32,000 bases of DNA from an uncultured archaeon (GTDB lineage: Archaea > Micrarchaeota > Micrarchaeia > Micrarchaeales > CABMGC01), in the NCBI GenBank assembly GCA_963704435.1, contig OY969902.1, positions 780,001-812,000 on the forward strand. The letters run 5' to 3'. Under the pieces are notes generated by a model. That model searched no databases, had not been told where the DNA came from, and saw nothing but the letters and a program-made list of their open reading frames with translations. Positions 4,428-20,624 of the stretch are shown here, in pieces. Both the position numbers and the translations under genes were made by a program. The number at the start of each line of letters is the position of its first letter. Position 1 is the first letter of the stretch.

Positions 4428-5573
4428 ATGAGGGACATAGCCTCCCTAGAGGTAAGCGTCGTGGTAGCTGAGCTTCGCGACCGGCTCGCCTCTGCGTTCT
4501 TCAAGAACTTCTACGAGCTGGGCGACGGCGCGTTCCTGCTCGCGCTGTCCAAGGAGCGCAAGGAGACCGACATCTACATCCGGCTCAACAAGACAGTGAA
4601 CGCCACATCGTTCAAGGAGCGGCCCCCCGAGCCGACGCAGTTCGCCAAGTCGGTCAGGGCGAAGCTCAGCGGGACGAGGATGAAGTCCCTGGAGCAGCAT
4701 GGATTAGATAGGATAGTGGTGATGGACTTCGAGGGGTCTGGTGGCGAGAGGCGGCTCGTGATAGAGCTCTTCGGCAAGGGCAACCTGCTCATCGTGGCCG
4801 GCAAGGACAGCATCACCGAGCTCGCCTACCGGAATGTGAGCTTCAGGGAGCGCGAGACCAGGAGGAACATGGTCTACGGCTTCCCCAAGAGCGGGTCCAT
4901 AGGGCCTGAGGAGATGACCCCAGAGGGCGTGGCGCACGTCGTGAAAGAGGTCAAGGGGTCGGAGGGCAAGCTGATATCAGAGCTGTCGAGGCGCATAGGC
5001 ATCGGGCCCATCTACATCGAGGACGTAATAGCGAGGGCGGGCCTGGACCCTAACGCGCCGGCGTCGGGTCAGGACATCGAGCGGAGCGGCATAATCAAGG
5101 AGATCCTAGCGCTGTTCAAAGCAGTTAAGGAGCCGTCGCCCCTGATTTACGTGAGCAGGCCGGACAACGCGTACGTTGACTTCGCGCTACTGCCGCTGCA
5201 GAAGTACAAGGGCAACAACGGCCTTGAGGAAATGGCGTTCCATGGCAAGTCCCAGCTGAACGACCTGCTGGACGAGCTCTACCTGAAGGAGAGGTCAACA
5301 GGCCTGGACAGCGCGAAGGCCGGCAAGATAAAGGAGCTTGAGTCGAGCATAGGCAAGCTTAGGAAACAGGCAGAGGAGCTGGACGGAAAGGCGGCGGAGT
5401 ACGCGGCCATTGGGAACCGGATATTCGAGCGCATGAACGACATCAACGCGCTGATAGCGCAGGCCAGGGAGTCAAGGCCCAAGAGCGCAAAGGACCTAGA
5501 GGGGATGCCAGGCATTATGGTCAAGTCCGTGGACCCCAAAAGCAAAACGATTAAAATAGAGCTTGCAGACTAA
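4428..5573 (+). CDS. NFACT-N/FbpA-family protein (Rqc2/NEMF-like), short form lacking NFACT-R
   Basis: The N-terminus has NFACT-N character (MRDIASLEVSVVVAELRDRL..FFKNFYELGDGAFLLAL...IYIRLN). A helix-hairpin-helix-like segment (SRRIGIGPIYIEDVIARAGLD) and a coiled-coil-rich tail follow. The ORF track starts at 4356, but ATGs at 4419 and 4428 fit the TATA spacing better. Confidence 0.7.
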   Translation: MRDIASLEVSVVVAELRDRLASAFFKNFYELGDGAFLLALSKERKETDIYIRLNKTVNATSFKERPPEPTQFAKSVRAKLSGTRMKSLEQHGLDRIVVMDFEGSGGERRLVIELFGKGNLLIVAGKDSITELAYRNVSFRERETRRNMVYGFPKSGSIGPEEMTPEGVAHVVKEVKGSEGKLISELSRRIGIGPIYIEDVIARAGLDPNAPASGQDIERSGIIKEILALFKAVKEPSPLIYVSRPDNAYVDFALLPLQKYKGNNGLEEMAFHGKSQLNDLLDELYLKERSTGLDSAKAGKIKELESSIGKLRKQAEELDGKAAEYAAIGNRIFERMNDINALIAQARESRPKSAKDLEGMPGIMVKSVDPKSKTIKIELAD

Positions 5574-5591
5574 TACCAGAGGCTGCTTTGA

Positions 5592-6482
5592 ATGATCAAG
5601 ACCGTAATCCTCGGGACTTCGGGCTCCGCGCCCACGAAGGAGCGCCATCTTCCCAGCGTGGTGATGGTGCGCGAGGGCGATATGCTCATGTTCGACTGCG
5701 GCGAGGGTACGCAGTTCCAGATGCTGAAGTACGGGCTCAACGCGGTCAGGATAAAGGCGATATTCATCAGCCACGCCCACGGCGACCACATCATAGGCAT
5801 AGCCGGCCTCGTGAGGACGATGGCCCTGAACTCCAGGAAGGCGCCGCTCTACATCTTCGTGCCCGAGGGCTACGAGAAGACCGTGAACGCGCTGCTGGTG
5901 TTCGACAAGGCGGTCATCCCATACCGCGTAGTTGTTAAGGGCGTCAGGTCTGGCGTAGTGTGCAGGGGGAAGGGCTATTCCGTCACCGCATTCAGGCTGA
6001 ATCACACAATACCCACCTATGGCTACGCGCTGAAGGAGGACGACAGGCTCAGGTTCAACAAGGACTTGGCGAAGCGGTTCGGCATAAAGGGCAGGATGTT
6101 CAAGGAGTTGCAGGAGAAGGGCAAAATAAACATTGGAGGAAGGACCGTGAGGATCGGGCAGCTGACCAGAAAGCAGACGGGAGTGAAGGTAGTGTATGCA
6201 ACGGACACAAGGCCAACAAAGGCGACTGAGATCGCGGCGAAAGGAGCCGACCTGCTGATACATGAGGCAGCGTACTCGGAAGCCGAGAAGAAGCTGGCCG
6301 TGCAGAGGAAACACTCCACATCAAGTGAGGCAGCGGAGCTCGCAAAGAAGGCAGAGGTAAAGAGGCTCGTGCTGACACACGTAAGCGCAAGGCACAGGGA
6401 TGCGTCCGCGCTTCTCATACCTGCGAAGAGGATATTCAGGAACACGTCAGTAGCGAACGACGGCGACACGATAACTGTCTAG
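5592..6482 (+). CDS. rnz: Ribonuclease Z (tRNA 3' endonuclease, metallo-beta-lactamase fold)
   Basis: 296 aa. It has the N-terminal LGTSGSAPT motif, the HxHxDH motif (SHAHGDH), and the C-terminal THVSARH typical of short-form RNase Z. Confidence 0.9.
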   Translation: MIKTVILGTSGSAPTKERHLPSVVMVREGDMLMFDCGEGTQFQMLKYGLNAVRIKAIFISHAHGDHIIGIAGLVRTMALNSRKAPLYIFVPEGYEKTVNALLVFDKAVIPYRVVVKGVRSGVVCRGKGYSVTAFRLNHTIPTYGYALKEDDRLRFNKDLAKRFGIKGRMFKELQEKGKINIGGRTVRIGQLTRKQTGVKVVYATDTRPTKATEIAAKGADLLIHEAAYSEAEKKLAVQRKHSTSSEAAELAKKAEVKRLVLTHVSARHRDASALLIPAKRIFRNTSVANDGDTITV

Positions 6483-6519: not shown

Positions 6520-6590
6520 GGAGGCATAGTCTAGTGGTAGGACGGCAGATTGACATTCTGCAAGCCGGGGTCCGATTCCCTGTGCCTCCA
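6520..6590 (+). tRNA. tRNA-Val (anticodon GAC), no encoded CCA
   Basis: Hand-folded 71-nt cloverleaf. Acceptor GGAGGCA/TGCCTCC plus discriminator A. D arm GTCT-AGTGGTA-GGAC. Anticodon arm GCAGA-TTGACAT-TCTGC, giving GAC. Variable loop AAGC. T arm CGGGG-TCCGATT-CCCTG. It is followed by TTTT. The T-loop has C where U55 is expected. Confidence 0.9.
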
Positions 6591-6670: not shown

Positions 6671-7480
6671 CTACTGCCTGAGCTCCAGCAGCATCGCCGA
6701 GTGGTCGCTGAGCCCGGACTCCCTCACTCCGTGCAGGTAGGAGCAGCTACTTACAAAGGGCAGAATGCTATCTGTCGCGAACGCGTGGTCGAAGCGGTAG
6801 CCAATCCCCTCCCTGCTGATCCATGAGTGGTCGGTCTCCTTCGGGTGCATAAGCTTGAACAGGTCGGTGAACCCGTGTTTTCCAAATGCGCTGTAGAAGC
6901 CCTCCATGCCCTTGTACGAGGGGTGGTAGGGGACGTGGTTTGGCTCGAGGAAGTTCATGTCCCCCAAGATCAGCCAGGCCTTGAACTTCCTCCTGATCTT
7001 TGCGTCGGAAATCAGCTCCTCGAACGCGCCCATTAACTCGGCCTGCGTGCTGTGCGCGTGAGGCCCCGGCACGTAGGCGCCGGTCACGAGGACGCTCCTG
7101 CCGAAGAGGTCGCACTCGAGCGACGGGACCCTGTAGGTCAGTTTGGCGATGCGCAAATCCGAGACCCGCTCCGAAACGCCCCTCGCGGCCAGGATGGTGC
7201 AGTAGTCGCCGCCCTCCGGCTTCGGGAAAACGACGGTGTACCCGAGGCTGGCGAGCCTGTCCTTTATGTATGCGCAGCCCCTCGAGTGCTTAGCCTCTGA
7301 CAGCGCGACGATGTCGAAACCTTCCTCCTCCAGCCACACCATCTGCTTCACGGCCCTCTTCAACGACGGGTTCTGTATGTTCCATCCGAGGCACATTATC
7401 GTGTCCGAGCCTGTCGCCTTCCTTTCGGTGGGAGAATCAAGGAATATCTGCTTTCCCGCGCCGGAGACCCTGAAAGCCAT
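6671..7480 (-). CDS. Endonuclease/exonuclease/phosphatase (EEP) family nuclease, ExoIII-like
   Basis: The protein resembles ExoIII at both ends. The N-terminal core reads CLGWNIQN...DIVALSEAK, and it also has GDMNF and the C-terminal GYRFDHAF...LSDHSAMLLEL. Homology suggests the start may be M29 (7396), but the longest ATG is 7480. Confidence 0.8.
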   Translation of the reverse strand: MAFRVSGAGKQIFLDSPTERKATGSDTIMCLGWNIQNPSLKRAVKQMVWLEEEGFDIVALSEAKHSRGCAYIKDRLASLGYTVVFPKPEGGDYCTILAARGVSERVSDLRIAKLTYRVPSLECDLFGRSVLVTGAYVPGPHAHSTQAELMGAFEELISDAKIRRKFKAWLILGDMNFLEPNHVPYHPSYKGMEGFYSAFGKHGFTDLFKLMHPKETDHSWISREGIGYRFDHAFATDSILPFVSSCSYLHGVRESGLSDHSAMLLELRQ

Positions 7481-7489
7481 GCCAAACCG

Positions 7490-7822
7490 CTATTCTATCT
7501 TGTAGACCGCGCTGCCCCGCTGCACGGGATGGTTGACCATTATCCCCACGTCGTCGCCGTCGGACGCCTCACTGACGTCCTTCCTGTCTATCTGCATGCT
7601 AGACACCTTCTGCCTTATCGCTACCTCCTCATTCTCTATCTCTATGGTATCGCCGACCCTCAGCGTGCCGCTGAGCCTTATGGCCGCGACCCCCAGCTTG
7701 CTGAAGAAGTGCTCGACATTGCCGATGGGCGTCCTTTCCATGGCTGCCTTAGGCTGCTGCGCGCCCCTCGCCCTCTCCTCCTTCAGGTTCGCGACCTCCA
7801 TCTCGTTGTCGATGTCGTCCAA
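7490..7822 (-). CDS. Stand-alone EF-Tu domain-2-like beta-barrel protein
   Basis: The core IGNVEHFFSKLGVAAIRLSGTLRVGDTIEIEN...MQIDRKDVSEA..GDDVGIMV resembles translation-GTPase domain II. The start is uncertain: TTG 7822, ATG 7801 or ATG 7741. The stop is 9 nt before the EEP gene ATG. Confidence 0.6.
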   Translation of the reverse strand: MDDIDNEMEVANLKEERARGAQQPKAAMERTPIGNVEHFFSKLGVAAIRLSGTLRVGDTIEIENEEVAIRQKVSSMQIDRKDVSEASDGDDVGIMVNHPVQRGSAVYKIE

Positions 7823-8778: not shown

Positions 8779-9301
8779 GACCGAAACGATAGTCTTCGGA
8801 GGTGGCTGCTTCTGGTGCACTGAAGCTGTGTTCAAGCTCATCAAGGGGGTCTCCAAGACCGAGCCCGGCTATGCCGGAGGCACAGCGAAAAATCCCACCT
8901 ACGAGCAGGTCTGCTCCGGGAAGACGGGGCACGCCGAGGTCCTGCGAGTGGAGTACGAACCCCAGACGATACCGCTCGGGAAGCTGCTTGAGGTCTTCGT
9001 GGGCATGCACGATCCCACGTCGCTCAACAGGCAGGGCCCAGACACCGGCAACCAGTACCGGTCGATCATACTCTACAGGTCAGATGCGCAGAGGAAGGAG
9101 ATAGAGTCCTTCCTTAAGAAGGCCCAGGCGGATTTCGACAAGCCAATCGTCACCGAGGTCAAGAAGCTCGACGCATTCTATCCCGCCGAGGAGTACCACA
9201 GGGATTACTACCGCAGGAACCCGCTGCAGCCTTACTGCCTGATCGAGATCGGGCCGAAGATAGCCAAAGTCAAGAGGAAGTTCGCCAGCCTTATGAAGTG
9301 A
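8768..9301 (+). CDS. msrA: Peptide-methionine (S)-S-oxide reductase MsrA
   Basis: The catalytic GCFWC motif and the GHAEVLRVEYDP-like and YHRDYY motifs are present. The start overlaps the msrB 3' end by 11 nt. Confidence 0.92.
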   Translation: MRSETETIVFGGGCFWCTEAVFKLIKGVSKTEPGYAGGTAKNPTYEQVCSGKTGHAEVLRVEYEPQTIPLGKLLEVFVGMHDPTSLNRQGPDTGNQYRSIILYRSDAQRKEIESFLKKAQADFDKPIVTEVKKLDAFYPAEEYHRDYYRRNPLQPYCLIEIGPKIAKVKRKFASLMK

Positions 9302-9313
9302 ACACGTGGTCGC

Positions 9314-10372
9314 ATGCGATACCATCTAGAATGCCTTCAGTGCGGTGAGAGGTACGCCAGCGGCTACGACAGGCAGGTGTGCACGAGGTGCGGCGGCATA
9401 CTCGAAGTCACATATGATGGGAAGATCCCTGCAATCAGGGACGCGTCAGGTTTCTGGGACTTCGAGAGAGTGCTGCCCGACTGCAGGTACGCGCGCTATG
9501 AGCTCGGGTCGACCCGGCTCGTCAGGAGCCGCGACCGCGACAACGTATTCCTCAAGCTGGAGCTTGAGAACCCTACTAGGTCCTTCAAGGACCGCGGATC
9601 TGTGGTCGAGGTCGCTAAGGCGCTGGAGTATGGGAAGAAGGAGATAGCGCTAGCCTCAACAGGCAACATGGCGTACTCGGTGGCCTACTATGCGAAGCTG
9701 GCTGGCCTGAAAGTGAAGGCGTTCATAGGCAGGGGAGCCAACAGGGACAAGGTGCAGAATATAAGAGGAGTGGGCGACGCGTCTATGGACTTCGTCAACG
9801 GCGACTTTACCAAGGCGCAGATGCTGGCGATAAAGTACGCGAGGAAATCGGGAGCGTTCCTCGCAGGCGACTACTGCTACAGGAAGGAGGGCCAGAAGAC
9901 CGTCGCGTACGAGATAATCAACCAGCTGCCTAGCGTCACGCACGTCATCGTCCCGGTCGGGAACGCCACGCTGATAAGCGGAGTGTTCAAGGCGCTGAAG
10001 GAGATGGAATCATCAGGCAGGATCGCGAAATTGCCGAAGATAGTCGCAGTCCAGGCAAAGGGCAGCGACCCTCTTGTACGCGCGTTCAAGTCGCGCAAGG
10101 CAATAAAGTACATTACGCCGAAGACGGCGGCGGATGCTATAGCCGTCGGCTTCCCCACCTTTGGAGATCAGGCGTTAGTCGCGCTGCAGGAGACGAAGGG
10201 CACTGCGGTAGCGGTCAGCGACTGGGAGATGGCGCTTGAGCAGCGAGCGTTCTACAAGAATTACGGCCTTATAGCCGAGCCCGCGGGGGTCGCGAGCCTT
10301 GCCGCGCTAAGGAAGATAAGGTTCGGGCCGAGGGACAGGATAGTTGCCGTGATAAGCGGCGGGAACTTCTGA
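9314..10372 (+). CDS. thrC: Threonine synthase (PLP-dependent, short archaeal type with N-terminal zinc ribbon)
   Basis: Zinc ribbon CLQCG...CTRCGG. PLP-lysine motif NPTRSFKDRG. Also ASTGNMAYSVAYYA and a C-terminal ISGGN. Confidence 0.85.
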   Translation: MRYHLECLQCGERYASGYDRQVCTRCGGILEVTYDGKIPAIRDASGFWDFERVLPDCRYARYELGSTRLVRSRDRDNVFLKLELENPTRSFKDRGSVVEVAKALEYGKKEIALASTGNMAYSVAYYAKLAGLKVKAFIGRGANRDKVQNIRGVGDASMDFVNGDFTKAQMLAIKYARKSGAFLAGDYCYRKEGQKTVAYEIINQLPSVTHVIVPVGNATLISGVFKALKEMESSGRIAKLPKIVAVQAKGSDPLVRAFKSRKAIKYITPKTAADAIAVGFPTFGDQALVALQETKGTAVAVSDWEMALEQRAFYKNYGLIAEPAGVASLAALRKIRFGPRDRIVAVISGGNF

Positions 10373-10393
10373 GATCTACATTACAGATCTTTT
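10372..10393. terminator. Hairpin plus T-tract between convergent thrC and GNAT genes
   Basis: AGATCT(10372-10377)-ACATTAC-AGATCT(10385-10390), followed by TTTT. It overlaps both stop codons. Confidence 0.4.
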
Positions 10394-10815
10394 GAAAACC
10401 ATACTTCACGCGAAGGAGCAAATCCAATATGCTCATAGAAGCTTTGTGCATCTTTCATATGGCTTCCTACCGCTACATATATCGTCCTTATTCCTGCCTT
10501 TCTTATCAGATCAATTGCGTGTGTAATTAGTGCTTTTCCTATTCCTGAAGACCTTTGTTCATCCATCACATATAATTCTTCAAAATAGGCCACTCCCTTT
10601 TCTTTTATGTGCTCATACAGTACAAACCAAAGGTACCCTACTAGTTTACTATCCTGTTCTGCAACAAGGATGGTTTGTTTTGCTCTAAAGTTATTTAGGT
10701 TGAGTTCTGACCCATAAAAAGCCTGCTTTTCATCTCCTCTATAAAGGCTATGATATTGTTGAGTTATCTTCTCAATATCCCGGGCTTCGGCCTCTCTTAT
10801 ATCAATATTACTGAT
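10381..10815 (-). CDS. GNAT-family N-acetyltransferase (full-length homology region lacks a canonical start; possible pseudogene)
   Basis: My translation of the frame upstream of the 70-aa track ORF gives ISNIDIREAEARDIEKI...LVAEQDSKLVGYLWFVL...VAYFEELYVMDEQRSSGIGKALITHAI..., which is a complete GNAT fold with the Q/RxxGxG/A acetyl-CoA motif. There is no ATG/GTG/TTG between the in-frame TGA at 10816-10818 and the GTG at 10593. ATC sits where the Met codon is expected. Confidence 0.6.
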   Translation of the reverse strand: MSNIDIREAEARDIEKITQQYHSLYRGDEKQAFYGSELNLNNFRAKQTILVAEQDSKLVGYLWFVLYEHIKEKGVAYFEELYVMDEQRSSGIGKALITHAIDLIRKAGIRTIYVAVGSHMKDAQSFYEHIGFAPSREVWFSKDL

Positions 10816-11100
10816 TCAAACACCTTCAATCTGCCCTTTTATTTTATCGTATATGTGATTGTATATTTTATAAGTAGAGCAGTCTTCGTTTGTTTTAAAA
10901 TTTCCATTCTGTTTGTACTGTTTTCTATCAAACGTGCATGCGCCCTTGCAATACTCTAGCCAGTTGCATCCTTCGCATAACTTCAAAGTGTCGATCTGGT
11001 CACTCATTAGTCTCTTATGCGCACCTGAAGAAAGCAGGTCGTTCATCGCATTTATGTTTCTTATATCAGACGCATCTTTTTCTACTATACACCACCGCAA
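10816..11100 (-). CDS. SPASM-domain C-terminal fragment of a radical SAM enzyme (frameshifted)
   Basis: Contains a perfect CX2CX5CX3C motif (CEGCNWLEYCKGAC). It overlaps the upstream rSAM ORF by 16 nt in another frame. Confidence 0.7.
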   Translation of the reverse strand: MRWCIVEKDASDIRNINAMNDLLSSGAHKRLMSDQIDTLKLCEGCNWLEYCKGACTFDRKQYKQNGNFKTNEDCSTYKIYNHIYDKIKGQIEGV

Positions 11101-11978
11101 GCGCGTGGGAACTTATCACATAGACTTAGCGTATTATCTGGATAGAAGGTAAACGCCGTATTTGCACAAGTCGAATGTCCTATTTGACATATGTTAGATC
11201 CCTTTTTTAGAATAGTTTTGATTATTTCTTCAAATAGAACTATGTGTATGTCCGGATCATCATTGGCATACCATATATCGAAAAGAGCATCTGTAAACCT
11301 CACATATTCTTCCATTGGGTATACGTAGTCCGTTACTTGATTTCCTTTGCTGTCTATTATGGGCTCTTGGGGTAGAAAATCGAAGGTCTTCATCTCATTT
11401 TCAATAAAAAAATCAAATAATTTTTGTGCGCCGAAATTTATCGTATTTTTAGTGATCACTGCTAACGCTCCAAAAGGCACATTCTGCTTCTGCAATATAC
11501 ATATTCCTTCCATTGTTTTGGCGTAACTGTTTCCGTATACCGAAATGCGTTGGGAATTATTTAAAACCTCAGGTCCGTCTATGCTAACTCCGATATTTAC
11601 TTCATTCTTTTTAAAAAAACTAGCCCATTCGTCATCTATCAAAGTGCCATTGGTTTGAATACAATTCCTTATTTTTAGATCGTCGCGTGTCATTTCTTTC
11701 TGGCTAGCTATTAGCTTTTTGAAAGCTTCTTTTCCAAATAATAAGGGTTCGCCACCATGCCATATGAAATCCACACTGTGAATGCCCTTAGAGTTAAAAA
11801 GCATCTGATATAGAAGGTTAACTTGTGCAGGTTGCATCTTCTCGGGCTTAAGCTCTTGGCGTACTTGTAGTCCAGAAACTCCACAGTATTTGCATGCGTT
11901 AGTGCAAGCATTGGTCAGCTTAACAATAACTACGATTCCTGATGATTTCGCCAGCCTAGGCTCGACATTATTTGACAA
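11085..11978 (-). CDS. Radical SAM enzyme, AslB/anSME-like core (N-terminal 297 aa; frameshifted from its SPASM domain)
   Basis: CX3CX2C motif (CTNACKYC), FIWHGGEPLL, IQTNGTLIDDEW and VSIDGP are present. The start is TTG at 11978, and there is no in-frame ATG before the cluster motif. The ORF ends at TAG 11085-11087 immediately after ...LSLCDKFPRACGGV. Confidence 0.8.
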   Translation of the reverse strand: MSNNVEPRLAKSSGIVVIVKLTNACTNACKYCGVSGLQVRQELKPEKMQPAQVNLLYQMLFNSKGIHSVDFIWHGGEPLLFGKEAFKKLIASQKEMTRDDLKIRNCIQTNGTLIDDEWASFFKKNEVNIGVSIDGPEVLNNSQRISVYGNSYAKTMEGICILQKQNVPFGALAVITKNTINFGAQKLFDFFIENEMKTFDFLPQEPIIDSKGNQVTDYVYPMEEYVRFTDALFDIWYANDDPDIHIVLFEEIIKTILKKGSNICQIGHSTCANTAFTFYPDNTLSLCDKFPRACGGV

Positions 11979-12372
11979 AGTGCCCTCTCGGTTTCGCAGT
12001 AAAGCTCAACCTTTGCCACAATAGGTTCAAATCCTTAAGCTGTTAGAAAGTAAGCTATGACCTCTCCAGTCAGTAGTCAATACCGGAGGCGCCTGCAATA
12101 GTGTAGCTACTATTCTACTCCCACCAACCTTTTCATTCCCAACCATTTTACCACAACTATATTTATTGTAGGGTATTATATAAGAGTTTCTGCTGCCTTC
12201 GTCAAAAACAAATCCCCACCTGCTGGAGTTAGGCCAGATTTGACGTAATATTCTCTAAGAGAAAACCCCCTTCTTGTCCTTAGGATAAGTGATAACCCCT
12301 TAGAGGCTGCAGAATGCCTTCCGAACAAGGTTTTTATTACTTGAATCCACATCATATGCATCAGGTGCATCA

Positions 12373-14730
12373 GTGCTCGGCAAATACGACCCCAAGGAGT
12401 CGGAGAAGAGGACCGCGGATTTCTGGGAGAAGAAGGGGGTCTACAAATTTACAGGGACGAAAAGGAGCGAGGTCTATTCCATAGACACTCCCCCGCCCTA
12501 CGTGTCGGGAGCGCTCCATGTGGGCCACGTGTTCTCATACACGCAGGCTGACTTCATAGCGCGCTACAAGAGGATGAGGGGCTACAGCGTCTTCTACCCG
12601 ATGGGCTTCGACAACAACGGCCTGCCCACCGAGCTGAGGGTGGAGAAGGACTTCAACGTCGTCGCATCGCATCTCGGCAGGGAGAAGTTCATAGGCCTAG
12701 TGGAGAAGACGGCAGATGGTTACGAGGAGGGATACCGCAAGGCGTGGAAGTCCATCGGCCTGTCGGTGGACTGGTCCCTCCTGTACAGGACCATAGACAA
12801 GAACGCGCAGAAGGCGTCGCAGCTGTCGTTCATAGACCTCTACGAGATGGGAAGGGTCTACAGGAAGGAGACGCCGACGATGTGGTGTCCCAAAGAGAAG
12901 ACCGCCGTCTCGCAGATGGAGCTGAAGGACAAGAAGGTGAAGTCGAAGTTCGTTTACCTGCGCTTCTCGAAGGACGTCGAGATCGCGACCACGAGGCCCG
13001 AGCTGCTGCCTGCCTGCGTGGCAATCTTCGTGAATCCCGACGATGGCAAGCACAAGAAGCTCATAGGCAAGTCCGTCAAGGTGCCTCTCTTCGGCAACGA
13101 GGTCAAGGTAATAGCAGACAAGAGGGTTGACCCTGCGAAGGGCACCGGAGTCGTTATGTGCTGCACGTTCGGAGACCAGACCGACATAGAGTGGTACAAG
13201 GCATACGACCTGGAACTGCGCATCGCAATGGACAAGGAGGGCAGGATGCTTGTCGGGGAATACAAGGGCATGAAGGCGAAGCAGGCCCGCGAGGCGATCA
13301 TCGAGAAGCTCAGGCAGGGCGGCAACGTCATCAAGGAGGAGGAGATAGAGCACGACGTGAACGCGCACGACAGGTGCGGCACTGAGGTTGAGTTCCTAGT
13401 CACTCCGCAGTGGTACGTGCGGATCCTTGATCTGAAAGAGGAGCTGCTCAGGCGCGGCGAGGAGATCGAGTGGCACCCCGACCACATGAGGCACAGATAT
13501 GCGAACTGGATCACCGGCCTGCAGTGGGACTGGGGAATATCCAGGCAGAGGTTCTTCGGGATCCCGTTTCCGGTTTGGTACTGCGCAAAGTGCGGCGAGA
13601 TAAAGCTGGCGGAGCGGGAGCAGCTGCCTGTGGACCCGCTCGAGGGCAAGCCGAAGGGCAAGTGCGCTAAGTGCGGCTCTTCAGAGTTCAAGCCCGAGGA
13701 GGACATCATGGACACCTGGGCCACGTCATCACTTACCCCACTGATAAACGCGAGGTGGGCCCTTGACGGGAAATACATGAAGACCATATATCCTATGGAT
13801 CTTCGACCCCAGGGCCACGACATAATCTCCACATGGCTCTTCTCGACCATCGTGAAGTGCCAACTGCACACGGGCAAGCTGCCATGGCGCAGCGTCCTCA
13901 TAAACGGCCACGGTCTCGACTCGAAGGGAAGGTCGATGCACAAGTCGATTGGCAATGTAGTCGACGCGAACGAGGCGATGGAGAAGTACAGCGCGGACGC
14001 GCTCAGGTACTGGGCGGCGTCCTCAACTATTGGCGAGGATTCGTCCTTCCAGGAGAAGAACATGGTGAGCGCGCAGCGGCTGGTGAACAAGCTGTGGAAC
14101 GTCGCGAGCTTCATTGAGCAGAACTGCAAGACCTTTGATGGCAAGCATGACAGTGTGGTCGACAGATGGATATCCGCCCGAGCCGCGCTAGTGGCAAAAT
14201 CTGCGACAGACAGCTTAGACAACCTGGATTTTGCATCGGCGAAGAGGGTCGTAGAGGAGTTCTTCTGGTTCTTCGCGGACAACTACCTGGAGTTCGTGAA
14301 GTACAGGATCTACGGGAAGGACGACTCTCCAAACCGCGCGCTCGCGGAGACTTATCTCTCAATATTGAAGATGTTCGCGCCGTTCCTGCCGTTCGTCACC
14401 GAGGAGATATACCAAAAGGTCTTCAAGGGGAAGCTCGACAGCGCAGCATCGATACACCTATCGGAATGGCCGGTTCCTGACCTGGAAGAAATTGACAAGA
14501 AGAGCCTAGAGGAAGGGGACAAGGCGCAGAAGGTCATCGCCTTCGTCAGGAAGTGGAAGCACGACAATTCCATGGCGCTCAATGCAGAACTCCAGGGCCT
14601 GACGATAAGCGAGGATCTGGGAGAACTGAAGGAAGACATAAAGGGCGCTATGAACGTAAAAAGGATATCTGAGGGCAAGGGGAGCCTGCAGGTTCCCGAG
14701 ACCGATATAAAAGTGGAAATGGCGAGATAG
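12373..14730 (+). CDS. valS: Valyl-tRNA synthetase
   Basis: 785 aa. It has PPPYVSGALHVGH (HIGH region), a CP1 editing-domain-like insertion, zinc-like CAKCG...CAKCG, and a KMSKS-loop variant GRSMHKSIGN. The GTG start is forced, because an in-frame TAG lies at 12301 and there is no other start before it. Confidence 0.88.
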   Translation: MLGKYDPKESEKRTADFWEKKGVYKFTGTKRSEVYSIDTPPPYVSGALHVGHVFSYTQADFIARYKRMRGYSVFYPMGFDNNGLPTELRVEKDFNVVASHLGREKFIGLVEKTADGYEEGYRKAWKSIGLSVDWSLLYRTIDKNAQKASQLSFIDLYEMGRVYRKETPTMWCPKEKTAVSQMELKDKKVKSKFVYLRFSKDVEIATTRPELLPACVAIFVNPDDGKHKKLIGKSVKVPLFGNEVKVIADKRVDPAKGTGVVMCCTFGDQTDIEWYKAYDLELRIAMDKEGRMLVGEYKGMKAKQAREAIIEKLRQGGNVIKEEEIEHDVNAHDRCGTEVEFLVTPQWYVRILDLKEELLRRGEEIEWHPDHMRHRYANWITGLQWDWGISRQRFFGIPFPVWYCAKCGEIKLAEREQLPVDPLEGKPKGKCAKCGSSEFKPEEDIMDTWATSSLTPLINARWALDGKYMKTIYPMDLRPQGHDIISTWLFSTIVKCQLHTGKLPWRSVLINGHGLDSKGRSMHKSIGNVVDANEAMEKYSADALRYWAASSTIGEDSSFQEKNMVSAQRLVNKLWNVASFIEQNCKTFDGKHDSVVDRWISARAALVAKSATDSLDNLDFASAKRVVEEFFWFFADNYLEFVKYRIYGKDDSPNRALAETYLSILKMFAPFLPFVTEEIYQKVFKGKLDSAASIHLSEWPVPDLEEIDKKSLEEGDKAQKVIAFVRKWKHDNSMALNAELQGLTISEDLGELKEDIKGAMNVKRISEGKGSLQVPETDIKVEMAR

Positions 14731-14742
14731 CAGGTTTCGCTA

Positions 14743-14958
14743 TCAGATTGCCTGCAGTTCGTACGCCATCTTATGAGCGTAAAGATGCGCCAGGAGCGCG
14801 GTCTTGCTTCCGCAGTCGGCATTGCAGAGCCAGCAGACATACTGCCTCTCCTTCACGGCGGCCTTCGTTACCGATTTCTCCTCAATGACGCAGTGCGCTG
14901 CCTTTTCCCTTCCCCACATAACACAATCAGCCATATATCCCTTCTTATGTTTTGGCAT
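14743..14958 (-). CDS. Small C2H2-type zinc-finger protein
   Basis: YVCWLCNADCGSKTALLAHLYAH matches C-x2-C-x12-H-x3-H with a preceding aromatic residue. An ATG at 14958 gives 71 aa. The ORF stays open to 15117 through AT-rich sequence that contains a TTTTATATTT box (minus, about 15036-15045). Confidence 0.55.
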   Translation of the reverse strand: MPKHKKGYMADCVMWGREKAAHCVIEEKSVTKAAVKERQYVCWLCNADCGSKTALLAHLYAHKMAYELQAI

Positions 14959-15286
14959 TATCTTCAGCTCTTCGCCTGCAGGCGTAAACGCAATGTGCCG
15001 CTTCCCCAACAATACACCACTCCTAATGATGTTAAATATAAAAGGTGCGCGGAGGGATGGGCTACTTGAGAATCGCTTCTCAAAGGTCCACGCACCTAAA
15101 GATTTCCTGTCCTTCAAAGGAGTATTACACTGTCTGCCTATTTAAGAATAGCCTGATTATCTTTGGGAAAGGGTTAACCATACGCTACCAAAATCAGATA
15201 ACTTGCATATTTGTTTATATTCATTTTGTTATAATTAGTAAGCTATAACAAAAGATTAAAGAATAAGGACTATCAGTATATAACAT

Positions 15287-16669
15287 ATGAAAGGAGTGCC
15301 GCCGAGAGTGGCGAAGGCGTTCGGAAGGCTCAGGGGGGAGAGCGCCGGCAGGGTGTACCTGAAGCTGATAAACGGCAAGCACTACGTATACAGGGAGTCG
15401 GGCACGTGGGACAAGGAGAGGAAGCGGGCGAGAGTGAAATCGGAGTACCTCGGAAGGATACTCGACGATGGCACCTACATAAAGAAGATCTCTTCGTACG
15501 GCGACGAGTTCGAGAGGGCGAAAGCGCTAATCCTCGAGCGGGGTGGGAAGGTGGTCTGGCCAGAGAAGATAGGGGAGACTGCGCTCCCGGAGCAGATTAA
15601 CCTGTCCGCGAGCGGGACGGATGCGAAACTGCTTATGGCGATGAGCATGAACGCCAGGGCCAGCTTCGCCGCGATGGGTAGGCTTGCTGGGCTGAGCCCC
15701 TCCGCGGCATACTCTCGCGTCAAGAACCTGGAGAAGCGTTATGGGATAAAGTACACTGCGGAGGTCGACCTGGACAAGCTCGGGTACATAACCTACCTCG
15801 TGCTGATAAAATTCCAGAAGGAGGTGCCTGGCCTGGAAAGCCTGAAGGCGGCGATGGCAAAGGATTCCAGGATCCAGCTCGCGTTCCTGACGAAAGGGGA
15901 GTATGACCTTATCATCTTTCTGCTCACGGAGAAGGGCGACGAGGGTGGGTTCAACCTGTACAAGACGAGGGAACTGATATTCCCTGATTACGACGCAAGG
16001 TGGTACCGCGCTCCTGTATACATCACATATAATTTCATTCCCCTACGGGAGGAGTTTTTCGAGATATTTAAGGAGCGGATATGGAAAAGATCGAAGGAGA
16101 ACCCGAAGCCGCCGGAAGGCAGCATCTCACACGGAGAATATTGCATCTTGTATGAGCTGGTCAAGAACGGAGTTATAGACTTTAGCGAGATCGACAGGAA
16201 ATACGGCTTTGACAAGGGGATGGCGCAATACACCTATCACCGGCTTAAGGAGAAACAAATCATAAAAAGGATTACGATTTCTATGACTAACCTCCCTCTG
16301 AAGTACTTGGCAGTTCTTTACATGGAGAATACCAACGACAAAAAATGGGAGGAGGCGAAGTCAAAGCTACTGGAGCACATAATCAAGGAAACGGATATGC
16401 CAACCGATCACTATGCCCTTGTGGGGGACGCCGGAACGCCGAATGGCTCTATTTTCGTCGTCCCGATATTCAGAGAAGAGGACCTTGGGAAAGCGGAGGA
16501 GGATCTAAGGTCCACGATAAGGGATTCCAGAGTCACGACTTCAATAGTTGCCGGAACGGTGGTCAATGCGCCTTGCTTCAGGAAGTTCGATAAGACCTAC
16601 TCGACGCAACATAAACGGCTTGTCATAAGCCATGGGCATAGCTCCCAATCCAAAATCAGATACGAATAA
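15287..16669 (+). CDS. Tandem Lrp/AsnC-like transcription regulator with an N-terminal extension of about 110 aa
   Basis: There are two HTH-plus-RAM-like modules. Module 1: TDAKLLMAMSMNARASFAAMGRLAGLSPSAAYSRVKNLEKRYGIKYTAEVDLDKLGYITYLVLIKF. Module 2: GEYCILYELVKNGVIDFSEIDRKYGFDKGMAQYTYHRLKEKQIIKRITISMTNLPLKYLAVLYM. I cannot assign the basic N-terminal segment (GRVYLKLINGKHYVYRESGTWDKERKRARVKSEYLGRI). Confidence 0.7.
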   Translation: MKGVPPRVAKAFGRLRGESAGRVYLKLINGKHYVYRESGTWDKERKRARVKSEYLGRILDDGTYIKKISSYGDEFERAKALILERGGKVVWPEKIGETALPEQINLSASGTDAKLLMAMSMNARASFAAMGRLAGLSPSAAYSRVKNLEKRYGIKYTAEVDLDKLGYITYLVLIKFQKEVPGLESLKAAMAKDSRIQLAFLTKGEYDLIIFLLTEKGDEGGFNLYKTRELIFPDYDARWYRAPVYITYNFIPLREEFFEIFKERIWKRSKENPKPPEGSISHGEYCILYELVKNGVIDFSEIDRKYGFDKGMAQYTYHRLKEKQIIKRITISMTNLPLKYLAVLYMENTNDKKWEEAKSKLLEHIIKETDMPTDHYALVGDAGTPNGSIFVVPIFREEDLGKAEEDLRSTIRDSRVTTSIVAGTVVNAPCFRKFDKTYSTQHKRLVISHGHSSQSKIRYE

Positions 16670-17282: not shown

Positions 17283-18692
17283 ATGTCCAAACGAAGGCAA
17301 GACGCGTTCGGAACTGGAGACTACAAGGAGAAGTACGGATTTTCCACGCGCGCCGAATACTTGGAATTCGAGAGGGGCCTGTCCGAGTCCGTCGTTAGGA
17401 GAATATCAAAGCTGAAGGGGGAGCCGAAGTGGATGCTGGGCAAGCGGCTGCTCGCCTACAAGGTGTTCGAGAGCAAACCGGTTCCCGAATGGGGCGCCGA
17501 CCTGAAGGGCCTCAACCTCCATGGCATGCAGTACTACAAGATGCCGAAAGCGGACGAGACCAATGACTGGGACAAAGTCCCCCTTGAGATAAAGAGGACG
17601 TTCGAGAGGCTGGGCGTGCCCGAGTCGGAGCGGAGATTCTTCGCCGGATCCGAGGCACAGTTCGACTCAGGCGTCGTATATGCGAGCGCGAACAAGATGC
17701 TAAGCGATTTGGGAGTAGTGTTCGTTGATACAGATACCGCGGTAAAGAAATATCCTGACTTAGTGCGGAAATACTTTGGAACTGTCATTCCGCCTACTGA
17801 CAACAAATTTGCCGCGCTGAACACGGCAGTGTGGTCCGGCGGATCGTTCGTTTTCATACCGAAGGGAGTCAAGGTTCCCATACCTCTCAACGCGTACTTC
17901 AGGATAAATGCTGAGCGTTTCGGCCAGTTCGAGAGGACGCTGATAATCGCGGACGAGGGGTCGGAGATTACGTTCGTTGAGGGATGCACTTCCCCCGTAT
18001 ACACGAGCAGTTCGCTGCACGCAGGTGTTGTCGAGTTGATTGCGAACAGGGGTGCGCACATAAGGTATGCGACCGTCCAGAACTGGTCGAAGAACATCTA
18101 CAACCTCGTTACGCAGCGTGCGCACGTTCACGAGGACGCGCACGTCGAGTGGATTGACGCCAACATAGGCAGCAAGACGAACATCAAGTACCCATCCGTT
18201 GTGCTGAAGGGCAGGCGCGCGAAGGGAGAGATACTCTCGGTCGCGCTAGCTGGCGAAGGCCAGGAGCAGGACAATGGCGGCAAAGCCTACCATCTAGCTC
18301 CGGGCACGACGTCGCGGATTGTTTCCCGGAGCGTCTCGAAGGGCAGCGGCGTCGCCACGTTCAGGGGCCTGGTGCATGTCGGCGAGGATGCCGCGAACTC
18401 AAAGTCGAGCACCGAATGCAGTTCGCTGCTGCTCGACCCTCGCGCGAAGGCAAACACATATCCCTACATCGAGGTGGACAGGGACGATGCGCTCGTCAGC
18501 CACGAGGCCAGGGTCGGGAGGATAGGCGACGACGAGCTATTCTACCTGATGTCCAGGGGAATAACTGAGGGCGACGCCACTGCGATGATAATACTGGGCT
18601 TCATAAGCGACCTGACGAAGGCGCTGCCGATGGAGTACTCGCTGGAGCTGAAGAGGCTCATAAAGATGGACATGGAGGGCGGAGTGGGATAG
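17283..18692 (+). CDS. sufB: Fe-S cluster assembly scaffold SufB
   Basis: 469 aa with typical SufB blocks (FVFIPKGVKVPIPL, EGCTSP, NWSKNIYNLVTQR, the C-terminal DELFYLMSRGI..A..MII.GF). Confidence 0.93.
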   Translation: MSKRRQDAFGTGDYKEKYGFSTRAEYLEFERGLSESVVRRISKLKGEPKWMLGKRLLAYKVFESKPVPEWGADLKGLNLHGMQYYKMPKADETNDWDKVPLEIKRTFERLGVPESERRFFAGSEAQFDSGVVYASANKMLSDLGVVFVDTDTAVKKYPDLVRKYFGTVIPPTDNKFAALNTAVWSGGSFVFIPKGVKVPIPLNAYFRINAERFGQFERTLIIADEGSEITFVEGCTSPVYTSSSLHAGVVELIANRGAHIRYATVQNWSKNIYNLVTQRAHVHEDAHVEWIDANIGSKTNIKYPSVVLKGRRAKGEILSVALAGEGQEQDNGGKAYHLAPGTTSRIVSRSVSKGSGVATFRGLVHVGEDAANSKSSTECSSLLLDPRAKANTYPYIEVDRDDALVSHEARVGRIGDDELFYLMSRGITEGDATAMIILGFISDLTKALPMEYSLELKRLIKMDMEGGVG

Positions 18693-18700
18693 GCGGTTGC

Positions 18701-19870
18701 ATGGATCACGAGAGAATGCTTGAATTCGCTGCGCAGGAGCGCTGCAGGATATCCGAGGAGACCGCGGGTCTGTACAAGAGGCACACCCTGCCCGCGGAGG
18801 TGCCAAAGGCAGGGAAGCTCGCGGCTTCGGGAATCCTTGAGGGTCTCAGGAAATCGATTGCCGCGGAGTCGCGGCTGCGCTTCGACCTGGTCTACGACGG
18901 GACGGAGTTCTCTTGCGGCAGCGACCTTGTCAGGGTCATCAGGAAGGCCCGCAAGCCCGGTGCCGGAAGCGCGATAGTAGTGGAGGTGCCAGAGGATGAA
19001 AGGGTCAGGCTCAATTTTCTGATTCTCTGCGGCGTAAGCCTGCCGCTCGAGATTGCCGTGGGCGCCGGACGCGGCTCCACCCTGAGCCTGTTCGAATGGT
19101 ATGGATCAGCGCCAAGTGCCGCCGGGGCCGTCGCGGCGGTGCGCGCTGTCGATGCAGGCAGGGGCTCGAGCGTCGAGATAAGCGCGCTGCACAACGAGGG
19201 GGGAGAAATGTCCGTCGAGTCCACGTGCAGCGTCGTCTCTCACAGCCATGCTCACGCGGTGTTAAACAACGTGCACATCGGCGGGAGCACGACCCGCTCA
19301 GTATCAATCGCCGATGCCGAGGGCGAGGGGAGTTCTGTCTCCGTGAACGACATGGTCTTCGGCGCAGCTAGCCAGAAGTTCGATCTCCTCTCCGTCATCT
19401 CGAACTCCGCTCCAAGGACCAGGGCGCTCATCCGATCGAGCTGCGTGCTTGCCGGAACATCGTCTTCGATGCTCAAGGGGAACGCCAGGGTCGCGAAGTC
19501 CGCAAGGGGCTCGGTCTCGCGCGTCGAGCAGCGGGGCCTGCTCCTTGACCCAGCGTCCCGGGCGCAGCTGCTCCCCGACATGTCCGTGGCCTGCGGAGAG
19601 GTGGAATCCGCATCGCACGGCGCCAGCGTCGCGCCGATCGACGACGACGAGCTCTTCTACATGATGTCGAGGGGCGTGGATGCGGCGAAGGCAAGGCAGA
19701 TGTTCGTCTCCGGCTTCCTTTCCAAAGGCCTCTCCGGCGTGGGAAGCGATACCGTTAAAGAGGTTGCAATTTCAATGATGCTCAACAAGTTCGGCAGCGG
19801 AAGGCAGTCCGGATCCCCGAAGATAAGCGCGAGGGACGTCTGGGCCGCGCCAGCGGGTGGATCGCGATGA
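18701..19870 (+). CDS. sufD: Fe-S cluster assembly protein SufD (SufBD family)
   Basis: 389 aa. The beta-helix-like repeat region and the C-terminal DDDELFYMMSRGVDAAKARQMFVSGFL are characteristic of SufD. There is an ATGA overlap with sufC. Confidence 0.85.
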   Translation: MDHERMLEFAAQERCRISEETAGLYKRHTLPAEVPKAGKLAASGILEGLRKSIAAESRLRFDLVYDGTEFSCGSDLVRVIRKARKPGAGSAIVVEVPEDERVRLNFLILCGVSLPLEIAVGAGRGSTLSLFEWYGSAPSAAGAVAAVRAVDAGRGSSVEISALHNEGGEMSVESTCSVVSHSHAHAVLNNVHIGGSTTRSVSIADAEGEGSSVSVNDMVFGAASQKFDLLSVISNSAPRTRALIRSSCVLAGTSSSMLKGNARVAKSARGSVSRVEQRGLLLDPASRAQLLPDMSVACGEVESASHGASVAPIDDDELFYMMSRGVDAAKARQMFVSGFLSKGLSGVGSDTVKEVAISMMLNKFGSGRQSGSPKISARDVWAAPAGGSR

Positions 19871-20592
19871 TTCTAGAGATAAGGGACCTGCATGCGGGGG
19901 TGGAGGGCCGAGAAGTGATAAAGGGCCTGAGCCTCAAGATACGGAGCGGAGAGTTCCACGTGCTGATGGGCCCGAACGGCTCCGGCAAGACCACGCTGTC
20001 CAACGCGATAATGGGCCATCCGCGAGTGAAGATCACAAAAGGCAGGATACTCGTCGACGGGAAGAGCATACTCGGGCTGGCAACCGACGAGCGGGCAAGG
20101 CTCGGCTTGTTCCTCGAGTTCCAGAATCCCATCGAGATCGAGGGGCTCGGCCTCATGAATTTCCTGAATAGCGCAAAGGCATCCGTGTCCTCAGGCACGT
20201 CTTTCAGGGGACTGATAGAGGAGGCGAGGTCCGCCGCCGCAGGGCTAAACATGAAGGAGGATCTGATGGGCCGGTCGCTCAACTACGGTTTCTCCGGAGG
20301 AGAGAAGAAGAAGATGGAGATTCTCCAGATGCTGCTGCTCAGGCCGAAGATTGCGCTGCTGGACGAGCCCGATTCGGGGCTCGACGTCGATGCCGTGAAA
20401 GCGGTGGCGGAGAACATAAGCAGGTTCCAGAAGGAGACGGGAGCGGGAATCCTCCTCATAACGCACTATGCGAGGATACTCAACTACCTTAAGCCGAGGT
20501 ACGTGCACGTGCTTTCCGACGGAAGGATAGTCAAGGAGGGCGGCCCAGCTCTGGCCGCGGAGATAGAGAAGAAAGGATACATGTTCAAGTGA
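19867..20592 (+). CDS. sufC: Fe-S cluster assembly ATPase SufC
   Basis: Walker A GPNGSGKTT, signature FSGGEKKK, Walker B LLDEPDSGLD and H-loop ITHY are present. Confidence 0.95.
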   Translation: MILEIRDLHAGVEGREVIKGLSLKIRSGEFHVLMGPNGSGKTTLSNAIMGHPRVKITKGRILVDGKSILGLATDERARLGLFLEFQNPIEIEGLGLMNFLNSAKASVSSGTSFRGLIEEARSAAAGLNMKEDLMGRSLNYGFSGGEKKKMEILQMLLLRPKIALLDEPDSGLDVDAVKAVAENISRFQKETGAGILLITHYARILNYLKPRYVHVLSDGRIVKEGGPALAAEIEKKGYMFK

Positions 20593-20624
20593 TATCATGC
20601 CAGGTTTCGGTGCACAGTGATATT

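Follow-up and report, generated by a model that had tools for sequence, protein, structure and literature searches.

The window analyzed here, a 32,000-nucleotide (nt) stretch of DNA from an uncultured archaeon of the Micrarchaeota (DPANN), contains an AT-rich islet between thrC, which encodes threonine synthase, and valS. The islet holds a short gene for a peptide, a gene for a radical S-adenosylmethionine (rSAM) enzyme with a SPASM region and a gene for a GNAT acetyltransferase, and both enzyme genes carry a lesion. The features of the islet and its flanks are listed below by window coordinates. Contig L007 represents the closest relative, an uncultured archaeon known from a metagenome-assembled genome (MAG); aa, amino acids; ORF, open reading frame.

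9314-10372, plus strand: thrC, threonine synthase (PALP family, pyridoxal phosphate-dependent), native left flank; PF00291 213 bits, NF006050 178.6 bits; 74% identity to the L007 thrC
~10373-12328, no strand assigned: foreign AT-rich islet, inserted after the thrC stop codon and ahead of the native core promoter of valS
10381-10815, minus strand: GNAT acetyltransferase gene, 144 codons; PF00583 65.9 bits (threshold 20.7); stop TAA at 10383-10381
10816-11085, minus strand: C-terminal SPASM part of the rSAM gene in a shifted frame, an ORF of 89-94 codons; C334-x2-C337-x5-C343-x3-C347 ... C366; stop TGA at 10818-10816
11085-11090, minus strand: frameshift lesion, GGT GGT GTA / TA / GTA GAA
11088-11978, minus strand: radical-SAM core and first half of the SPASM region (C264, C271, C287); TTG start; C25-x3-C29-x2-C32; PF04055 60.9 bits
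12027-12146, minus strand: precursor peptide gene, 39 aa, MVGNEKVGGSRIVATLLQAPPVLTTDWRGHSLLSNSLRI; leader S-R-I-V..LL; core from the invariant W-R-G-H
12150-12183, minus strand: putative cassette promoter and ribosome-binding site, predicted from the sequence; TATA-like TTATATAA at 12183-12176, GTGGT at 12154-12150, ATG at 12146
12329-12372, plus strand: native core promoter and ribosome-binding site of valS, with a TATA-like box and AGGTG; conserved with L007
12373-14730, plus strand: valS, native right flank; GTG start at 12373; NF009687 1029 bits; 82% identity to the L007 ValS

The islet departs from its surroundings in base composition. Positions 10373-12372 have a G+C content of 38.8% compared with 56.7% in the rest of the window, and 300-nt sliding windows fall to a G+C fraction of 0.35-0.45 only at ~10300-12400, with 0.55-0.61 on both sides. 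The initial annotation, which was made from the sequence alone, rightly described the islet as AT-rich but overstated the contrast as 25-33% against about 60%; the 60-nt lines of the islet vary between 23% and 53% (mean 39%), and the quoted figures are those of the poorest lines. It also let the islet fill the entire gap from the thrC stop codon to the valS start codon. Both flanking genes are confirmed, but the last ~44 nt upstream of valS, which contain the TATA-like sequence TTTTTATT and the AGGTG ribosome-binding site, are shared with L007 and thus native, which confines the foreign DNA to ~10373-12328.

All coding capacity of the islet lies on the minus strand in the order small ORF, rSAM/SPASM gene and GNAT gene, an arrangement that had been annotated initially and is supported by both the ORFs and the profile matches. 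The stop-free frames of 297, 144 and 89 codons would arise by chance at the composition of the islet with p<5e-5, p<5e-5 and p=8e-4, respectively. A 64-aa ORF at 12176-12370 of the minus strand was judged spurious; it belongs to no family, has no homologue and overlaps the native valS promoter. Neither an integrase nor a transposase is found among the islet genes, the tRNA/tmRNA and Rfam scans give no match in the islet (the single tRNA found is tRNA-Val at 6520-6590), and a search for direct and inverted repeats around the islet yields short chance-level matches with no terminal repeats. These scans agree with the initial view that mobility genes and flanking direct repeats are absent. A 15-nt inverted repeat of 93% complementarity pairs the right end of the islet (12265-12279) with valS codons 18-23 (12426-12440); chance alone would give ~0.2 pairs of this kind in the region searched, and L007 does not share the valS arm. 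At the left end (10370-10400), the stop codons of thrC and the GNAT gene are convergent and 8 nt apart, and the plus strand reads AGATCT-ACATTAC-AGATCT-TTTT, a potential small hairpin with a T-run behind it.

What is the product of the short gene at the head of the islet? The initial annotation listed it as a possible small ORF, and its homologues identify it as a precursor peptide gene. Homologous short ORFs are located 26-48 nt upstream of an rSAM gene, in the same orientation, in L023-L034, L132 and L134. The family shares a Lys-rich leader, K-S-K-I-L-x-x-L-L (KSKIL..LL), which is followed by a variable spacer and then by W-R-G-H-x-[L/V]-x-[S/A]; within the precursor, S, I, W, R, G and H are invariant. 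WRGHNLHSKS[Y/F/C] is the most frequent core, and the window core is WRGHSLLSNSLRI. The change of His7 to Leu in this core was not used as evidence of decay, given that the position varies among H, N, S and L in intact loci. Of 13 distinct cassette versions, which were collected from 16 contigs of different samples, 12 have an ORF with the shared leader and the WRGH core immediately upstream of the rSAM gene; the exception is L133. Among 131 loci, an in-frame WRGH beside an rSAM gene occurs only with the rSAM clade of the window, and a precursor profile retrieves only 11 clusters, all nameless and devoid of Pfam domains, from 5.8 billion proteins. A recurrent feature of the homologous loci and of the window is a TATA-like box at 30-45 nt upstream of the ATG, together with a GGTG-like motif that immediately precedes this codon. 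Two of the homologous stretches (L033 1000-1130 and L034 1-134) include a WRGH precursor that is without an in-frame start in L033. L033 is one base shorter in an A-run than the database peptide P0140 (MVEETKKHESSKLKSKIL...), and thus contains either a frameshifted precursor or a homopolymer error.

The precursor gene is followed by the rSAM gene, whose frame is broken. The upstream ORF of 297 codons (11978-11085) scores 60.9 bits with PF04055 against a gathering threshold of 29.5 and is a member of the radical SAM superfamily. Its TTG start was considered as a lesion and rejected, as TTG is likewise the start codon in L025 and L029, and GTG is that in L024. The genuine lesion, a frameshift at 11086-11088, bears out the initial annotation of a damaged rSAM gene and is the same in seven independent assemblies. 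An extra TA (11087-11086) or a 1-nt loss puts the frame onto TAG TAG. Ten intact homologues read through this point as CDKFPR-A-F-G-G-V-K-G... (CDKFPRAFGGVKG...), and removal of the TA, or addition of one base, joins the two frames into a 386-aa protein whose alignment with the homologues extends over the full length at 42-59% identity. The repaired maturase keeps all 11 invariant Cys residues and ~80 invariant positions. It displays the SPASM pattern, CX9-15GX4C followed by CX2CX5CX3C and a last C, as C271-x15-C287, the CX2CX5CX3C motif and C366; the G position of the first element is N in the window and G in several homologues. The TGA that terminates the maturase is natural, since the homologues stop at this point as well. 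The 221-aa protein P0032, which has W in place of the TGA, might imply recoding of TGA or a natural fusion of rSAM and GNAT, but both readings were rejected; P0032 stems from a code-4 gene call, and its DNA, that of L135, has TGA and does not yield the protein under code 11.

In profile searches, PF04055 and TIGR04085 both exceed their cut-offs, the latter marginally (27.1 bits on the C-terminal part versus a cut-off of 27), and PF13186 of Pfam gives no match. The full-length repaired enzyme scores highest with the model of the anaerobic sulfatase-maturating enzyme (anSME; 207 bits), followed by DynA (185 bits), DarE (181 bits) and DarW (178 bits) and then by the cyclophane synthases, of which YhhB, GrrM/OscB, AmcB and XyeB reach 120-145 bits against cut-offs of 310-450. 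The unrepaired rSAM part alone gives 183, 159 and 159 bits with the NCBIfam models of anSME, DynA and DarE, respectively. The best solved structure is that of anSME (4k36/4k37; 209 bits over residues 18-372), a match that settles the fold, and the triceptide synthase ChlB (9gm3) comes next with 116 bits. Judged from these matches, the enzyme is a three-cluster SPASM maturase positioned between anSME and the peptide cross-linkers. The label 'AslB-like', which the initial annotation had chosen, is too specific: the score of 206.7 bits falls short of the anSME cut-off of 349, and no sulfatase is present.

The GNAT frame starts right after the maturase TGA, in the same frame as the SPASM part. Its first codon is ATC (10815-10813), and no ATG, GTG or TTG occurs before an internal GTG at 10593. 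The orthologues in L023, L026, L031 and L132 have an ATG at exactly this codon, 1-5 nt after the rSAM stop, and the window protein aligns with them from residue 2. The GNAT gene was likewise annotated as damaged, and the damage proves to be this ATC in place of the ATG of the orthologues. The closest orthologues are 77% identical, and one of them is named Micrarchaeaceae.

The pairing of rSAM and GNAT genes that was noted initially is conserved in intact copies, but GNAT is not the sole partner in the family. An orthologous GNAT of 143-145 aa occupies the partner slot in the window, L023, L026-28, L031 and L132, and a divergent GNAT of 183 aa does so in L029/30. In L024, L025, L033/34 and L134, the slot is taken by a protein of 641-659 aa that consists of a PPDK_N ATP-grasp domain, a phosphoenolpyruvate (PEP)-utilizer swivel domain with a ..GITSH.. 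phospho-His motif and a unique C-terminal third. This second partner scores best with the profiles of PEP synthase (~140 bits) and of rifamycin-inactivating phosphotransferase (129 bits) and stays far short of both cut-offs. The model of HaaN, an N-acetyltransferase of cyclophane-type peptides that are made by the ribosome and modified after translation (RiPPs), scores 25.5 bits on the window GNAT versus a cut-off of 250 (NF041716). The precursor cores differ with the partner: each of the five intact GNAT-type cores has one Lys or more, the window core contains none, and the phosphotransferase-type cores all end in HSKS[Y/F]. These Lys and HSKS[Y/F] patterns may indicate the target residues of the partner enzyme.

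The cassette belongs to a narrow family. A search with the repaired maturase retrieves 11 close clusters (43-61% identity, 331-538 bits) before the scores drop sharply to ~200 bits and to generic anSME-like proteins. A profile of the clade, run against 1.84 billion representatives at 50% identity, finds one full-length representative (675 bits) and two fragments, with the next protein at 287 bits. Genomic context covered 10 of the 11 close clusters; a co-oriented short upstream ORF accompanies nine of these 10, as well as the window gene, and the order precursor, rSAM and partner is kept in 12 of the 13 versions. Intact cassettes with a WRGH precursor are thus found in other archaeal metagenome contigs, and the recurrent link of rSAM and GNAT genes in these loci counters the idea that the two genes never occur together in intact copies. 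The window and L023 are collinear in nucleotide sequence over both the rSAM and the GNAT gene, with 67% identity over 1408 nt, and the cassette therefore appears to travel as a unit. The layout of a peptide-maturation cassette, which the initial annotation had recognized in the islet, is upheld by the conserved precursor and the rSAM-GNAT order of intact homologous loci. A co-oriented precursor ORF with a conserved leader and core recurs across these loci, the arrangement by which a RiPP cassette is recognized, and we have good confidence that the gene set is one.

Specific entries for the WRGH cassette are absent from NCBIfam, Pfam and PADLOC. PADLOC also returns no defense-system match; the rSAM core has only generic viperin similarity (~40 bits), and the GNAT and the phosphotransferase are without a match. 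No description of the WRGH cassette family was found in literature searches on rSAM RiPPs of DPANN archaea and Micrarchaeota, on archaeal cyclophanes or on 'WRGH'. The WRGH family is apparently an undescribed archaeal family of rSAM/SPASM cross-linked RiPPs rather than a categorically new system. A scan of JGI metagenomes with the clade profile returned only second-tier relatives of at most 37% identity with different precursors. The rSAM enzymes of this second tier (contigs L035, L036, L037, L042, L046 and L051) are 33-37% identical to the window enzyme and have conserved precursors of their own upstream, in which a leader of ~45 aa, NFRDELEEVWVPKDVGELEGLLLTIQNEPGKKILKHKIQQ, is followed by Trp/Asp/His-rich cores such as WPDWDDLDWPDH. 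By its sequences, the second tier looks like another archaeal family of cyclophane-type RiPPs.

How did the cassette enter the Micrarchaeota genome? The window ValS is most similar to that of L007 (82% identity) and is 57-62% identical to those of several Candidatus Micrarchaeota and Micrarchaeaceae MAGs. L007 keeps the order thrC, valS, a small ORF and an AsnC-type regulator gene, but its thrC-valS gap contains a different ORF of 208 aa with 63-66% G+C (7090-7716) and nothing related to the rSAM or GNAT genes. Homology between the window and L007 ends exactly at the thrC stop codon and restarts ~44 nt before the valS start codon, and neither neighboring gene has been damaged by the insertion. 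The comparison of the two genomes identifies the thrC-valS junction in L007 as a variable spot. In this part of L007 (5855-7716), the thrC match is split over two frames near 6867, maybe by a frameshift or through a different C-terminus, and a 459-aa IS-like ORF is located just upstream of thrC.

Signs of acquisition are also seen at homologous loci. The G+C fraction of the cassette is lower than that of its flanks in the window (0.387 versus 0.55/0.58), in the GC-rich host of L029 (0.41 versus 0.62/0.57), in L023 (0.34 versus 0.44) and in L024 (0.345 versus 0.47/0.46); in the AT-rich hosts of L026, L031 and L132, the composition of the cassette blends into the flanks. The neighbors of the cassette differ at every locus and include gatCAB, a Y-family polymerase, TruD and AbiEii toxins. 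In L024, the cassette is located between two tyrosine-recombinase genes (4745-5593 and 9180-10163), and AbiEii-type toxin genes adjoin the cassettes of L029 (8524-9336) and L132 (2281-2961). By their gene content, the surroundings of the cassette in L024, L029 and L132 are variable or mobile regions. The named relatives come from Candidatus Marsarchaeota (maturase MCL5094662.1) and Candidatus Micrarchaeaceae (GNAT). The sequence pattern is that of a small mobile cassette moving among archaea with small genomes. A scan of viral contigs detects nothing closer than ~33% identity over part of the protein, and a viral vector is without support. The initial annotation regarded the islet as acquired. 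The absence of the cassette from the L007 junction and its AT-richness within GC-rich flanks in a second host, that of L029, speak for the same conclusion, and we regard horizontal acquisition as very likely.

Both the reality of the islet and its state of activity have to be weighed against alternatives. The exact ThrC protein is present on nine contigs, and seven independent assemblies (L001-L006 and L135) match the window exactly over the part of the islet that each of them includes, also at the frameshift site and the ATC codon. Six of these contigs represent two NCBI assemblies, three ENA metagenome assemblies and one Logan assembly from different samples; the seventh is L135. L002 and L003 cross both junctions, L001, L004-L006 and L135 cross the left junction, and all differences between these contigs and the window lie outside the islet. 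An assembly artefact, either a chimeric join or a low-quality consensus of AT-rich DNA from another organism, would fit the contigs that end inside the islet (L001 at 11383, L004 at 11585, L005 at 11195 and L006 at 11286) and two contigs of <1 kb that are made mostly of islet sequence. However, reduced coverage of AT-rich DNA, or the presence of related copies in the sample, is a simpler explanation of these breaks, and an artefact would have to account for two bridged junctions and for islet sequences that are identical across separate projects and samples. Low assembly quality, which the initial annotation had raised as an alternative, is not borne out by seven assemblies that agree over the lesions, and we consider the chance of an artefact practically negligible. 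The lesions are fixed in the population.

The window cassette contains two lesions in total, the frameshift and the lost start codon, and all invariant residues are otherwise kept, which accords with the initial impression of a system caught in decay. The frameshift cuts the maturase before the second auxiliary-cluster motif. The cassette might nonetheless still function here if the frameshift were bypassed by ribosomal or transcriptional slippage or if the fragments cooperated, and if the GNAT were translated from the ATC or by coupling. Both enzyme frames are otherwise intact with every invariant residue, the precursor, the TATA-like box and the ribosome-binding site are intact, the lesions are shared by seven assemblies from different samples, and only the TGA separates the GNAT frame from the SPASM part. 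However, the shift site GTA TAG TAG provides no slippery heptamer and is directly followed by two in-frame stops, none of the 10 intact homologues contains a shift at this site, and the split ahead of CX2CX5CX3C takes away auxiliary-cluster ligands. The apparent read-through protein P0032 is a mere product of code-4 gene calling, and ATC is a very poor start codon. Continued function is in our judgment very unlikely, and loss of function of the window copy is probable on the strength of the two lesions. The reading frames suggest that the window cassette is most probably non-functional and was caught early in decay. Because there are only two lesions and no conserved residue has been lost, the inactivation would be recent or, less likely, tolerated.

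Taken together, the islet is likely to represent a horizontally acquired and now inactivated three-gene RiPP cassette in a Micrarchaeota genome. Several observations weigh against this interpretation. In one clade member, P0008 on L133, no WRGH ORF is seen, and a second rSAM gene follows. The rSAM clade scores below every curated family cut-off, and its chemistry cannot be transferred from a characterized enzyme. W-R-G is not a classical three-residue cyclophane motif because Gly has no C-beta. The cassette includes no protease or exporter, and no mobility gene or repeat at the islet explains its entry into the thrC-valS spacer. Finally, with only two lesions and intact conserved residues, residual function is conceivable through the ATC start, translational coupling or ribosomal slippage.

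Two further alternatives concern the roles of the enzymes in the cassette. The maturase could be an anSME of the AslB type that acts on a protein, with the small ORF next to it being fortuitous. anSME (TIGR03942; PDB 4k36-4k39) is indeed the top match among both NCBIfam profiles and solved structures, has the same length and shares the three-cluster Cys pattern. However, 207 bits contrast with an equivalog cut-off of 349 (the best E-value of a clade member is 2.1e-67), DynA, DarE and DarW score almost as high, and no sulfatase gene is found among the scanned genes of the window or in any homologous locus. In place of a sulfatase substrate, the WRGH maturase has a dedicated peptide precursor, which is conserved beside 12 of the 13 cassette versions and lacks the C/S-x-P-x-R sulfatase motif. 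An anSME role is thus extremely unlikely. Greater weight is due to the possibility that the partner, whether GNAT or phosphotransferase, is a self-immunity enzyme that inactivates the mature peptide in the producer and not a tailoring enzyme. Both partner families include classic antibiotic-inactivating enzymes, and the GNAT matches AAC(6') and ArsN-like models, just as the alternative partner matches rifamycin-inactivating phosphotransferase. Moreover, one slot accommodates two unrelated chemistries, and no exporter or other immunity gene is present in the homologous loci. All these profile scores are, however, far below their cut-offs, and GNATs that tailor cyclophane RiPPs do exist, as exemplified by HaaN; we consider self-immunity somewhat unlikely.

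The WRGH cassette resembles several known systems and differs from each of them. As in darobactin and other daropeptides and in dynobactin (DarA/DarE and DynA), a single SPASM rSAM enzyme is encoded beside a short precursor whose C-terminal core contains Trp and His/Lys cross-link residues. Many WRGH-family cores end in H-S-K-S-[Y/F], which recalls the W-S-K-S-F of darobactin. However, the WRGH enzyme scores 181/178 bits with the DarE/DarW models (NF038005 and NF041300) versus a cut-off of 650 and 184.8 bits with DynA (NF041298) versus 450, and its cores do not follow W-x-W-x-[K/R]. DarE systems are found in Gammaproteobacteria, whereas WRGH cassettes are found in DPANN or Marsarchaeota archaea. 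In addition, the N-terminal extension of DarE is absent from the WRGH enzyme, and the WRGH family includes a phosphotransferase as an alternative partner. A precedent for an N-acetyltransferase partner in a cluster that is free of an exporter is provided by the class IV daropeptide (DarE) cluster, which contains an N-acetyltransferase and is devoid of the DarBCD exporter/transporter (PMC9055067).

Triceptide synthases and other rSAM cyclophane synthases (YhhB, HaaB, HtkB, GrrM/OscB, XyeB, AmcB and ChlB) are likewise SPASM enzymes that, on short motifs, join an aromatic residue to a carbon of a side chain. Their known rings include His-x-Lys and His-x-Ala, and triceptides are defined by an aromatic1-X2-X3 motif that the rSAM enzyme cross-links from the aromatic residue to a C-beta (PMC11499958). 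The invariant or nearly invariant H-x-[L/V] of the WRGH family would fit such a motif, and W-R-G would not. One triceptide-type family is tailored by the GNAT HaaN, whose model the window GNAT matches weakly. In contrast to triceptide precursors, the WRGH precursors contain a single motif instead of repeats, and the YhhB, GrrM, XyeB and AmcB models stay below their cut-offs. As a piece of DNA, the islet resembles genomic islands and integrative elements in its deviant composition and its strain- or species-specific insertion between conserved neighbors, and the L024 cassette is even placed amid tyrosine recombinases; the window islet differs in that it lacks an integrase, a transposase, a tRNA target and terminal repeats.

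What modification would the cassette install? The ~40-aa precursor would be bound via its KSKIL..LL leader. The radical-SAM/SPASM enzyme, of the anSME/DarE/DynA/cyclophane-synthase type with three [4Fe-4S] sites, would then abstract a side-chain hydrogen in the W-R-G-H-x-[L/V] core, and Trp1 and/or His4 would take part in the one or two aromatic-to-aliphatic cross-links that it forms. Candidate links are a three-residue H4-x-[L/V]6 ring, a four-residue W1...H4 ring and a Trp-Arg link. rSAM cyclophane synthases connect an aromatic ring to a carbon of a side chain through C-C, C-N and C-O links on motifs of 3-5 residues, and known links include His-C2 to the C-beta of Lys or Ala (PMC11499958). 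A Trp-Arg link is formed by WprB (PMC11851443). The downstream enzyme would modify or detoxify the product, with the GNAT acetylating an amine and the ATP-grasp/phospho-His phosphotransferase phosphorylating a hydroxyl. We infer the cross-link chemistry and the role of the GNAT from the sequences, and any specific cross-link is a tentative assignment that is, at best, possible.

The W-R-G-H tetrapeptide that is invariant in the archaeal precursors also occurs in a peptide of the moroidin/celogentin group. Moroidin, a plant burpitide, has the core QLLVWRGH, and its second ring, W-R-G-H with a bond from Trp-C2 to His-N1, is needed for bioactivity (PMC12056006). The plant ring is closed by a copper BURP-domain cyclase that is fused to its substrate, whereas no BURP domain exists in the WRGH cassette; a radical-SAM route would represent another mechanism and perhaps involve other atoms. 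The resemblance is a four-residue match that was found after the fact and serves only as a lead. In its boldest form, this lead would point to a new archaeal RiPP class in which the rSAM enzyme closes a Trp-His macrocycle on W-R-G-H, convergent with the moroidin ring of plants, in which the swappable acetyl- or phospho-transferase provides tailoring or self-immunity, and in which the product may act on tubulin/FtsZ-family proteins of hosts or competitors. The last element derives from the antimitotic activity of moroidin-type peptides, on account of which a product in DPANN symbionts might have tubulin/FtsZ-family targets. We consider this scenario as a whole distinctly unlikely.

Other features of the window belong to its wider context. 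A second AT-rich stretch at 1001-1800 (minimum 0.37 G+C) coincides with a SET-domain gene (1188-1745), which is 30% identical to the SET gene of L023 and may be a second foreign gene. The spacer between valS and the gene of a 460-aa AsnC-type regulator (14743-15400) is also AT-rich (minimum 0.36 G+C) and contains a 124-aa minus-strand ORF with a Cys/His-rich C-terminus; this ORF has no family match, and its final ~34 residues are shared with L007. A SufBCD-SufS Fe-S assembly cluster (17283-21869) and two adjacent, partly overlapping FtsZ/tubulin-family genes (25432-27506) constitute ordinary host context. The Fe-S supply and the FtsZ proteins of the host bear only on speculation about the cassette.

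Characterized archaeal RiPPs are few: two lanthipeptides from Haloarchaea were available before a study that adds more archaeal lanthipeptides (PMC12144867). The papers retrieved include no description of a RiPP from DPANN archaea. The WRGH cassette is compact and portable (~1.7 kb), and every part of it can be read, from the promoter and the precursor to the maturase and the modifying enzyme. The invariant four-residue core permits a sharp and testable prediction of cross-linking, and the natural swap between an acetyltransferase and a phosphotransferase provides a way to ask whether the partner serves tailoring or producer protection. If the WRGH ring proved to resemble the moroidin ring, peptide chemistry would have converged in a striking way, and a bacterial-style expression route to the scaffold would open up. 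The decayed copy in the window suggests that the ultra-small genomes of Micrarchaeota acquire such cassettes and then lose them.

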